In this document: positions 48,421 through 49,329 of the stretch, one piece after another | How positions within the stretch are numbered: position 1 is the stretch's first letter | Layout of the letters: every line of letters begins with the position of its first letter | From: a virus | Taxonomy: Duplodnaviria; Heunggongvirae; Uroviricota; Caudoviricetes | Virus record (IMG/VR): IMGVR_UViG_3300045988_142422 | Length of the DNA stretch: 64,000 bases | Reading direction: 5' to 3' (one strand) | Notes under the pieces: generated by a model | What the model saw: the letters and a program-made list of their open reading frames with translations, nothing else | Databases searched by the model: none | What the model was told of the DNA's origin: nothing | Program-made: the position numbers and the translations under genes

Positions 48421-49329
48421 TTAATGATTGCCTAGATATGATTTTAGTTCTTCTTTAATGATTAGTGAGTATTCTAAAATATCACTTAGTAAAAATTTTG
48501 CTCTGTTAAAATACCCACCAAAAGAACCTAAAATTTCAGATGGTCTTTCTAAGAGCATCACAATATCATCTTCTTGCACTTTAGTAATGTAACTTCTAAC
48601 AGCTTTTTCTCCAATAACTCTTTTCTTACCGTTTATTTCAGATTCATCTAAAACCTTATTTATAAATTTTTCTGTATCATTGAATCGTCCACTATTGTGT
48701 ACTATTGTATGTCTTAGTAGTTCAATTAGCTTGATGTTAAAGCGATAGTTTTTGCCAATCTTGTTGTTTGTTTCTATCTCTTTGAAGCCAGGTATTTTAT
48801 TTCTGAAAATTTTAGTTATTTTTTTCGATGGGTTACTTTTTGCTTTTAATAATCTGTAATAAACTTCCCTTTTCCCAATTTCATCATCTTCAACCTTACC
48901 AAAATCACTTGAGGACCATAAATCATTTCGAACACATACAGTATAGACATATATTGCCTCAATATAGTCTTCCAGTAACTCATAGGCTTCAGTAATAACC
49001 CACTGATATTGTTTATTTTTCAAAGTATTACACAATCTTATCTTTTCTTCTAAATCAATGGCGCTGTTACCTATCTCTAATGTTGAACCTGTATATGGGT
49101 TTGAACATAAATGGCGAGCTAACGTTGTGCCACACTTAATCTTAATAGTTTCATTAATATTAATAATAGTATCTGGATTCTGTGCATACTCCACTTCTTT
49201 AAGAAGACGTTTTATATTTTTCTTTGTTGTATCATTTATCTGATTTAAATAGTCAAAAAGTAAAGATATTTCTTCTCTAAATTCGTTGTATTTATTTTCA
49301 ATCAAAGAATCAGACAACTTACCAATCAT
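48421..49329 (-). CDS. AT-rich HEPN-motif protein, candidate abortive-infection / RNase-type defense gene (302 aa)
   Basis: Strong compositional break: 14 G+C in the 60 nt at 48421-48480 by hand count. LLRHTIVHNSG matches the HEPN R-[NHQ]-x3-H motif. Family assignment is inference. Confidence 0.55.
   Translation of the reverse strand: MIGKLSDSLIENKYNEFREEISLLFDYLNQINDTTKKNIKRLLKEVEYAQNPDTIININETIKIKCGTTLARHLCSNPYTGSTLEIGNSAIDLEEKIRLCNTLKNKQYQWVITEAYELLEDYIEAIYVYTVCVRNDLWSSSDFGKVEDDEIGKREVYYRLLKAKSNPSKKITKIFRNKIPGFKEIETNNKIGKNYRFNIKLIELLRHTIVHNSGRFNDTEKFINKVLDESEINGKKRVIGEKAVRSYITKVQEDDIVMLLERPSEILGSFGGYFNRAKFLLSDILEYSLIIKEELKSYLGNH

Follow-up and report, generated by a model that had tools for sequence, protein, structure and literature searches.

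The question raised by this locus is what a single, AT-rich gene, oriented against its neighbours, does for a phage-plasmid of Escherichia coli. The DNA analysed (the window) was a stretch of 64,000 nucleotides (nt) from the IMG/VR virus record IMGVR_UViG_3300045988_142422 (Caudoviricetes). The gene is located on the minus strand at 48421-49329, in a region of tRNA, glutaredoxin and tyrosine recombinase genes. An original prediction, made from the letters of the sequence and its open reading frames (ORFs), described it as a recently acquired moron for a HEPN ribonuclease (RNase) and as a candidate superinfection or anti-phage defence gene. The preferred answer, with a rough probability of 0.55, is that the gene encodes a metal-independent HEPN endoribonuclease, which would work alone as a single-protein module of abortive infection or superinfection exclusion and forms part of the cargo that an SSU5/pSLy3-like phage-plasmid keeps in a variable slot. 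The functional part of this reading is drawn by analogy with characterised HEPN proteins.

Conserved residues and predicted structure

The ORF starts with ATG and encodes a product of 302 amino acids (aa). Its placement and orientation had been read correctly in the original prediction, the neighbouring genes being on the plus strand. The sequence LLRHTIVHNSG, on which the HEPN reading was based, was found at residues 204-214. It contains the R-x4-H catalytic motif R206-H207-T-I-V-H211, which was read from the sequence at codons 48697-48714 of the minus strand (R206, 48712-48714; H211, 48697-48699) and is placed at the C-terminal end of helix 3.

HEPN proteins are recognised by an R-x4-6-H motif with a polar N, D or H right after the arginine. 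HEPN families typically have a conserved acidic residue in helix 2, and the core consists of four helices, with the motif where helix 3 ends and a variable insert between helices 2 and 3 (PMC3710099). In the alignment of 128 diverse family members (mean column identity 24%), R206 and H211 were invariant, and position 207 was H in 124 members and N in 4. The acidic residue E117 (codon 48979-48981, minus strand) was likewise invariant in 128/128 members. It lies in the second long helix (residues 93-133) and is predicted to be the third active-site residue. E117, R206 and H211 were the only invariant columns of the alignment. The typical HEPN form E-x3-[KR] is not kept here, as the sequence reads E117-x3-D121.

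The three-dimensional structure was modelled with AlphaFold2 from a deep alignment, and the model had a predicted local distance difference test score of 94.4 and a predicted template modelling score of 0.90. In the model, helix 1 spanned residues 2-50, followed by a beta-hairpin (69-91), helix 2 (93-133), an insert of about 60 aa (134-194) and helix 3 (195-212). The C-terminal part was composed of a small alpha/beta sub-domain (213-275) and helix 4 (276-300). The four long helices are thus predicted in the published order of the HEPN core, with R206...H211 closing helix 3, and structural similarity to solved HEPN domains was found. Sequence entropy was lowest in helices 2 and 3 (1.99 and 1.81 bits, respectively); helix 1, the linker and the hairpin were the most variable (3.05-3.25 bits).

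Several points weigh against the HEPN assignment. The topology was compared by the secondary-structure order of the model only. The Foldseek search against PDB gave nothing significant, the best match being a designed bundle (E = 0.025). There was no significant sequence or profile match to any established HEPN family. The family alignment was built from a motif-containing profile, which slightly favours motif-bearing matches; this bias is limited because the full-length E-values of 1e-30 to 1e-70 are independent of the three residues. Sequence and profile searches of PDB returned noise only (CmlS, SNAP-25). A lack of significant similarity is common between HEPN families, and such similarity is no strict requirement for membership.

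One alternative is a generic helical-bundle protein with a regulatory, structural or adaptor role, in which E, R and H are conserved for another purpose and the R-x4-H spacing is coincidental. This was considered very unlikely. The HEPN reading of the motif in the original prediction has stood up to the computational refutation checks that it proposed. The results suggested that the family very probably belongs to the HEPN superfamily.

Comparison with known HEPN families

The families suggested in the original prediction (Abi_2, AbiU2, AbiJ and RnlA) were not recovered. The query had no Pfam match to Abi_2/AbiD-F, AbiU2, AbiJ or AbiV even at E <= 10, and the lactococcal Abi families were absent among the Pfam families listed for the 128 members. 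The profile-profile comparison with RnlA gave E = 0.45. Since no significant match to the named HEPN families was obtained, the present family would be a new HEPN family, outside those named in the original prediction.

RnlA is an anti-phage HEPN RNase of E. coli, and RnlA/LsoA (RNase LS) has the motif form R-H-x3-H in common with the present protein. In the RnlA family alignment, R318 and H323 are invariant and H319 is conserved in at least 90%. The single best hhalign alignment placed R206/H207/H211 over R318/H319/H323 of RnlA and was not significant. The single-sequence and family-profile comparisons with RnlA were both insignificant, with the motifs in register. Membership of RnlA/LsoA was rejected: PF19417, PF19034, PF15935 and PF18869 were absent, the hhalign E-value was 0.45, and there was no adjacent RnlB or LsoB gene.

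The only Pfam family matched by the query was DUF3644 (PF12358), at E = 2.9 and 7.9 bits against a gathering score of 27.6. Query residues 182-223, including the R-x4-H motif, were aligned to profile positions 76-115. DUF3644 was matched by 4 of the 128 members (best E = 0.0065), all far under the Pfam gathering score. DUF3644 is a recognised HEPN family. In HEC-08 (DUF3644/EC042_2821-type), the motif histidine is required for defence, and the HEPN domain resembles SO_3166/5YEP. DUF3644 proteins are fused to winged helix-turn-helix, restriction endonuclease or Zn-ribbon domains, or occur within restriction-modification (R-M) or Hma systems, while the present family is stand-alone. The HEPN_Apea family was matched by one member, below threshold (E = 0.022).

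The HEPN toxins associated with MNT nucleotidyltransferases (HI0074/1JOG, HepT SO_3166/5YEP and YutE/1YLM; DUF86-like) had 10-14% identity to the present protein in structural alignments. These toxins are minimal HEPN domains of about 130 aa with an adjacent MNT antitoxin, whereas the present protein has 302 aa and no conserved neighbour. Membership of the MNT-HEPN (HepT/MntA, DUF86) toxin-antitoxin (TA) systems was rejected on the length of 302 aa and the absence of an NTP-transferase neighbour in the window.

HepS, the "HEPN Solo" abortive-infection protein of the Gifsy-1 prophage (PDB 9OIJ/9OIK), has no partner gene, is tetrameric and is inactive until a siphovirus tail-tip protein is bound (PMC13043305). 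Activated HepS cuts the anticodon loops of tRNA-Thr, tRNA-Ile and tRNA-Ser (PMC13043305). The HepS group comprises solo HEPN proteins of <250 aa that are homologs of STM14_3211 and have their motif close to residue 100. A search of the LT2 Gifsy-1 record for HepS found no ORF with R100/H105. On current evidence the family is not assigned to HepS.

ApeA and DARNA (PD-T7-3) are also one-gene HEPN defences. They cut tRNA anticodon loops after an infection cue and have extra non-catalytic domains as sensors. DARNA has an N-terminal HEPN domain (R117-H122) and a large C-terminal domain that binds single-stranded DNA, and is unlike the present protein in size and architecture. The PADLOC models for PD-T7-3 and ApeA did not match the family.

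Size and range of the family

A word-indexed homolog search returned only 8-9 relatives and gave the first impression of a tiny family. This was corrected by an exhaustive HMMER search of 1.84 billion cluster representatives, in which 453 matches were obtained at E <= 1e-3, 142 of them at E <= 1e-30. The family therefore comprises 453 representatives at 50% identity. Nearly all matches were proteins of about 290 aa aligned end to end.

A scan of one genome per species gave 41 loci, which were distributed over Beta-, Gamma-, Delta- and Epsilonproteobacteria, Bacteroidales, Treponema, Nitrospira, Aminicenantes and others. The range of the family thus includes Proteobacteria, Campylobacterota and Bacteroidota. 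The majority of homologs are in bacterial chromosomes, and the IMG/VR scan found a homolog on 11 viral contigs.

Hidden Markov model searches with the query and the 128 members found no model for the family in Pfam or NCBIfam. In PHROGs, the match was phrog_35492, of unknown function. Current defence-annotation pipelines therefore miss the family, PADLOC being included. The results indicated that this is a new, sizeable and uncatalogued family of stand-alone HEPN proteins, which would fall within a kind that is already known, namely the single-protein HEPN abortive-infection effectors on temperate phages.

Neighbouring genes and stand-alone status

The original prediction had found no antitoxin or MNT-type partner beside the gene, and the wider comparison agreed. 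In the window, no co-oriented ORF of >=20 aa was present in the intergenic DNA on either side, and the only Rfam non-coding RNAs beside the gene were tRNAs, with no tandem repeats of the ToxI type. All-against-all BLAST of the three neighbours on each side in about 45 loci revealed no recurrent neighbour family. The two genes on each side of the homologs were annotated with Pfam, PADLOC and PHROGs in about 38 loci. No NTP-transferase, MNT, RnlB or antitoxin was among the families listed, each of which matched at most two neighbours. The gene is stand-alone in architecture.

These results bear on a possible role in addiction. Many HEPN proteins are TA toxins, such as HepT/MNT and RnlA/RnlB, and the element is a plasmid in need of stable inheritance. 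The gene could then be a toxin, of post-segregational killing or of a TA module, by which a low-copy phage-plasmid is stabilised, its antitoxin having escaped detection as a small protein, an antisense RNA or the product of a distant gene. Truncated and frameshifted copies, described below, suggest that the gene can be costly. However, the intergenic regions, the missing ToxI-type repeats and non-coding RNA, and the lack of a conserved neighbour or listed antitoxin all count against this explanation, and relatives such as phage Cyrano persist without the gene. An addiction role was considered quite unlikely.

Defence and mobile-element genes are frequent neighbours of the homologs. In the two genes on each side at the same loci, strong PADLOC/Pfam matches covered no fewer than nine distinct defence systems: a type IIG R-M enzyme, a type I S subunit, PD-Lambda-1, PD-T7-5, PDC-S13, PDC-S15, Avs4, AbiEi and ToxN. 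The other neighbours were integrases, Bro-N, HNH, P2-type tail genes and ordinary housekeeping genes.

Base composition and cassette exchange

The GC content of the ORF was 29.2%, compared with 46.8% for the window, and that of its third codon positions was 22.8%. Over all 909-nt windows, the mean GC content was 46.9% with a standard deviation of 3.9, so that the ORF is about 4.5 standard deviations lower. The lowest-GC 909-nt stretch of the whole window falls within the AT-rich tract of the HEPN gene. This tract extends over about 48400-49500 and takes in the 173 nt of intergenic DNA 5' of the gene. The windowed computation confirmed the AT-richness relative to the surrounding DNA noted in the original prediction, whose count of 14 G+C in 48421-48480 was exact.

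Recent acquisition had been read from this composition, and that part of the original prediction was rejected. The HEPN gene was poorer in GC than its flanks at 47 of the 48 loci compared, which came from very different hosts of many phyla; the mean gap was 11.6 points. Low GC is a trait of the family, and the AT-richness therefore gives no date of acquisition. Diverged alleles (38-59% identity) in the same slot likewise do not support a recent arrival.

Comparison with pSLy3 gave flanks of 96-100% identity, while 48421-49500 was only 57-74% identical, with recovery at the start codon of the glutaredoxin gene. In phage Cyrano the flanks are the same, homology breaks off at 48420/48421 and 49503 of the window, and an unrelated ORF of 116 aa takes the place of the cassette. 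The upstream region 49330-49502 belongs to the replaced segment, as it has low identity to pSLy3 and is missing from phage Cyrano. The exchangeable cassette is thus 1.08 kb long (48421-49502), consists of the gene and its own upstream region, and lies between a terminator and the glutaredoxin start codon.

Alleles with 99, 59, 56, 43 and 38% protein identity occupied the same slot of other phage-plasmids. Those at 59, 56, 43 and 38% belong to other E. coli, Citrobacter and Klebsiella phage-plasmids, where they lie beside the tRNAs and are themselves on the opposite strand. The allele of the window was found in 19 of 5,426 complete E. coli genomes, always at >=99% identity and always on plasmids of the pSLy3-like type. 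Judged from these sequence comparisons, the locus is a variable slot that has long been occupied and in which alleles are replaced, and the cassette in it diversifies.

Truncated copies of 172-173 aa (P0005, P0006) occur in some E. coli phage-plasmids. A frameshifted copy in plasmid CP012114.1 (42849-43752) was recovered in three BLAST pieces and has no annotated coding sequence. These copies suggest occasional inactivation of the gene.

The interval between the HEPN gene and the integrase carries additional genes in two relatives. In Klebsiella phage pJN2-26 (locus L002, 2274-4820), these are PhoH-like and Gp49-family genes; in a Citrobacter plasmid (locus L062, 451-3304), they are a Gp49-family gene, a YafO-family toxin gene and a TolA-like gene. 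None of them is present in the window. Because of this extra cargo, the whole tRNA-to-integrase interval is regarded as a cargo hotspot. The Citrobacter plasmid has an ars operon on the other side of the HEPN gene.

Organisation of the locus and the host element

Upstream on the plus strand, an ATP-dependent DNA ligase gene (44867-46189) is followed by several small ORFs and by the genes for tRNA-Asn(GTT), tRNA-Thr(TGT) and tRNA-Ser(TGA) at 47779-48242. The glutaredoxin gene (49503-49748, plus strand) lies between the HEPN gene and the tyrosine recombinase gene (49959-51062, plus strand). The position between the tRNA cluster and the recombinase given in the original prediction was therefore broadly right, with the glutaredoxin gene intervening before the recombinase.

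A terminator scan and folding predicted a bidirectional intrinsic terminator at 48397-48416, a GC-rich hairpin with A- and T-run flanks, which folds at -13.6 and -13.2 kcal/mol on the two strands. It is directly 3' of the HEPN-gene stop codon, serves both the tRNA operon (plus strand) and the HEPN gene (minus strand), and forms the left cassette boundary. On the 5' side of the gene no terminator was found in the scan, the next one being at 49753-49772, past the glutaredoxin gene. Thus, of the two bracketing terminators in the original prediction, the 3' one was found and the 5' one was not.

The AT-rich region 49330-49502 is presumed to hold the promoter and 5' untranslated region of the HEPN gene on the minus strand, divergent from the glutaredoxin promoter. 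A GAGG ribosome-binding site is located 5 nt 5' of the ATG (plus-strand CCTC, 49335-49338). We infer that this region acts as the promoter region of the gene.

Two further structured elements were observed in the interval. A hairpin at 48245-48322 (plus strand), immediately 3' of tRNA-Ser, has 20-bp arms with 95% complementarity and an inner 8-bp stem. Its folding free energy was -41.2 kcal/mol, with a z-score of -9.0 against shuffled sequences, and phage Cyrano and pSLy3 have this stretch at 97-98% identity. Possible roles are those of a processing signal, a recombination site or a small RNA. A near-perfect palindrome at 49828-49860, with 16-nt arms and a 1-nt spacer (z-score -6.9), lies about 100 nt 5' of the tyrosine recombinase gene. 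The relatives in E. coli, Klebsiella and Citrobacter also have an inverted self-match there, and the palindrome is a candidate recombinase target, dimer-resolution site or operator.

The tRNA cluster itself varies among the elements. About 218 nt between tRNA-Thr and tRNA-Ser (47938-48155) are present in pSLy3 and missing in phage Cyrano, in which the two tRNAs are adjacent; ARAGORN and Rfam found nothing in this segment. The tRNA sets are Asn/Thr/Ser in the window, Asn/Tyr/Thr/Ser in pSLy3, Asn/Ser in pJN2-26 and Asn only in the Citrobacter plasmid.

The window was 98.6% identical to "Escherichia phage CMS-2020a". The gene order ligase, tRNAs, glutaredoxin, integrase, helix-turn-helix protein, CobT-like protein and AAA ATPase is common to the window and to non-mobilizable E. 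coli plasmids of about 110 kb, including pSLy3. On this gene order, the window is an SSU5/pSLy3-like E. coli phage-plasmid, in agreement with the phage-plasmid reading of the original prediction. P1 proper was ruled out, its likeness to the window being limited to the tRNAs.

Other accessory genes were noted elsewhere on the element. An ORF of 200 aa at 1415-2017 (minus strand) matched PF03614 "Repressor of phase-1 flagellin" (FljA-like) with E = 2.5e-84 and represents a flagellar phase-variation regulator aboard a phage-plasmid. A lower-GC patch at 36480-37381 (minus strand) encodes a GNAT acetyltransferase of 173 aa (36860-37381) and an abutting ORF of 126 aa (36480-36860) with no Pfam match. 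This pair may be a further accessory or toxin-like module.

Proposed function and significance

The proposed mechanism follows other solo HEPN proteins. In the plasmid-prophage state, the HEPN protein would be produced from its own promoter and would rest as an inactive homo-oligomer. Two protomers would be needed to join their R-x4-H motifs, as in other HEPN RNases, and E117 would assist. A product of a competing phage might be sensed by the fast-evolving non-catalytic parts, namely helix 1, the beta-hairpin, the insert between helices 2 and 3 and the C-terminal sub-domain, and the active site would then open. RNA would be cut, most plausibly in tRNA anticodon loops, so that translation would stop and the invader would fail to propagate. 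A trigger-activated, partner-less and default-inactive protein is proposed because of the analogy with HepS, DARNA/PD-T7-3, ApeA and HEC-08. The RNase activity, oligomerisation, activation by a trigger, RNA target and defence phenotype are all put forward on the strength of that analogy.

Circumstantial support comes from the curing of an SSU5-like Klebsiella plasmid, which increased phage plating efficiency 10- to 100-fold; the causal gene is unmapped, and the presence of a homolog on that plasmid is not established. Three further points weigh against the preferred reading. The promoter scan gave no minus-strand promoter above threshold for the HEPN gene. PADLOC has no model for the family and returned only scattered chance matches of single members. 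The tally of defence neighbours is rough and was made without a matched background.

The gene might serve the phage itself rather than defend the host. It could shut off or remodel host RNA or tRNA in lytic growth, with the adjacent tRNA genes compensating, or act in counter-defence against defence RNAs or cyclic-oligonucleotide signals. It lies on a phage genome directly beside the tRNA-Asn/Thr/Ser cluster, and this adjacency is kept in the E. coli, Klebsiella and Citrobacter relatives at 38-59% protein identity. The homologs on the 11 viral contigs also fit, and rapid allele turnover fits any arms-race gene. However, the gene is opposite to the surrounding operons and has its own AT-rich region, like a lysogeny-expressed moron. 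It is dispensable, since phage Cyrano lacks it and keeps the tRNAs. Its homologs are mostly chromosomal and often beside host defence systems, and the characterised solo HEPN proteins cited here (HepS, DARNA and ApeA) are all defences. Adjacency to tRNAs was rejected as a family-wide trait: none of about 45 distant loci had an adjacent tRNA, and the adjacency is limited to the phage-plasmid lineage. A phage-serving RNase was therefore considered unlikely.

The same adjacency could be explained by an anticodon nuclease that is functionally paired with the element's own tRNAs (Asn-GTT, Thr-TGT and Ser-TGA, plus Tyr in pSLy3) as a replacement supply. If true, superinfecting phages or the host would be starved while the element's own lytic programme would still be translatable, and such self-immunity by a nuclease and spare tRNAs would be distinct from the escape of HepS by trigger variants. 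This pairing was rated highly improbable: Cyrano carries the tRNAs and lacks the gene, and outside the lineage the two are not adjacent.

The preferred reading thus remains a single-protein HEPN defence carried as phage-plasmid cargo. If the gene is inactive or serves the phage, the significance would be modest. The mechanisms of HepS, ApeA and DARNA were worked out only recently, and each senses a different infection cue. If the present gene is a defence gene, it would extend the solo-HEPN class by a new sensor architecture and would also provide a mapped candidate for the phage exclusion reported for one SSU5-like plasmid, the hosts of these elements being clinical Enterobacteriaceae. The clean exchange between a terminator and a start codon offers a tidy natural system for the allele turnover of defence cargo on phage-plasmids. 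The family is of use in the annotation of defence genes and makes a clean candidate for experiments.

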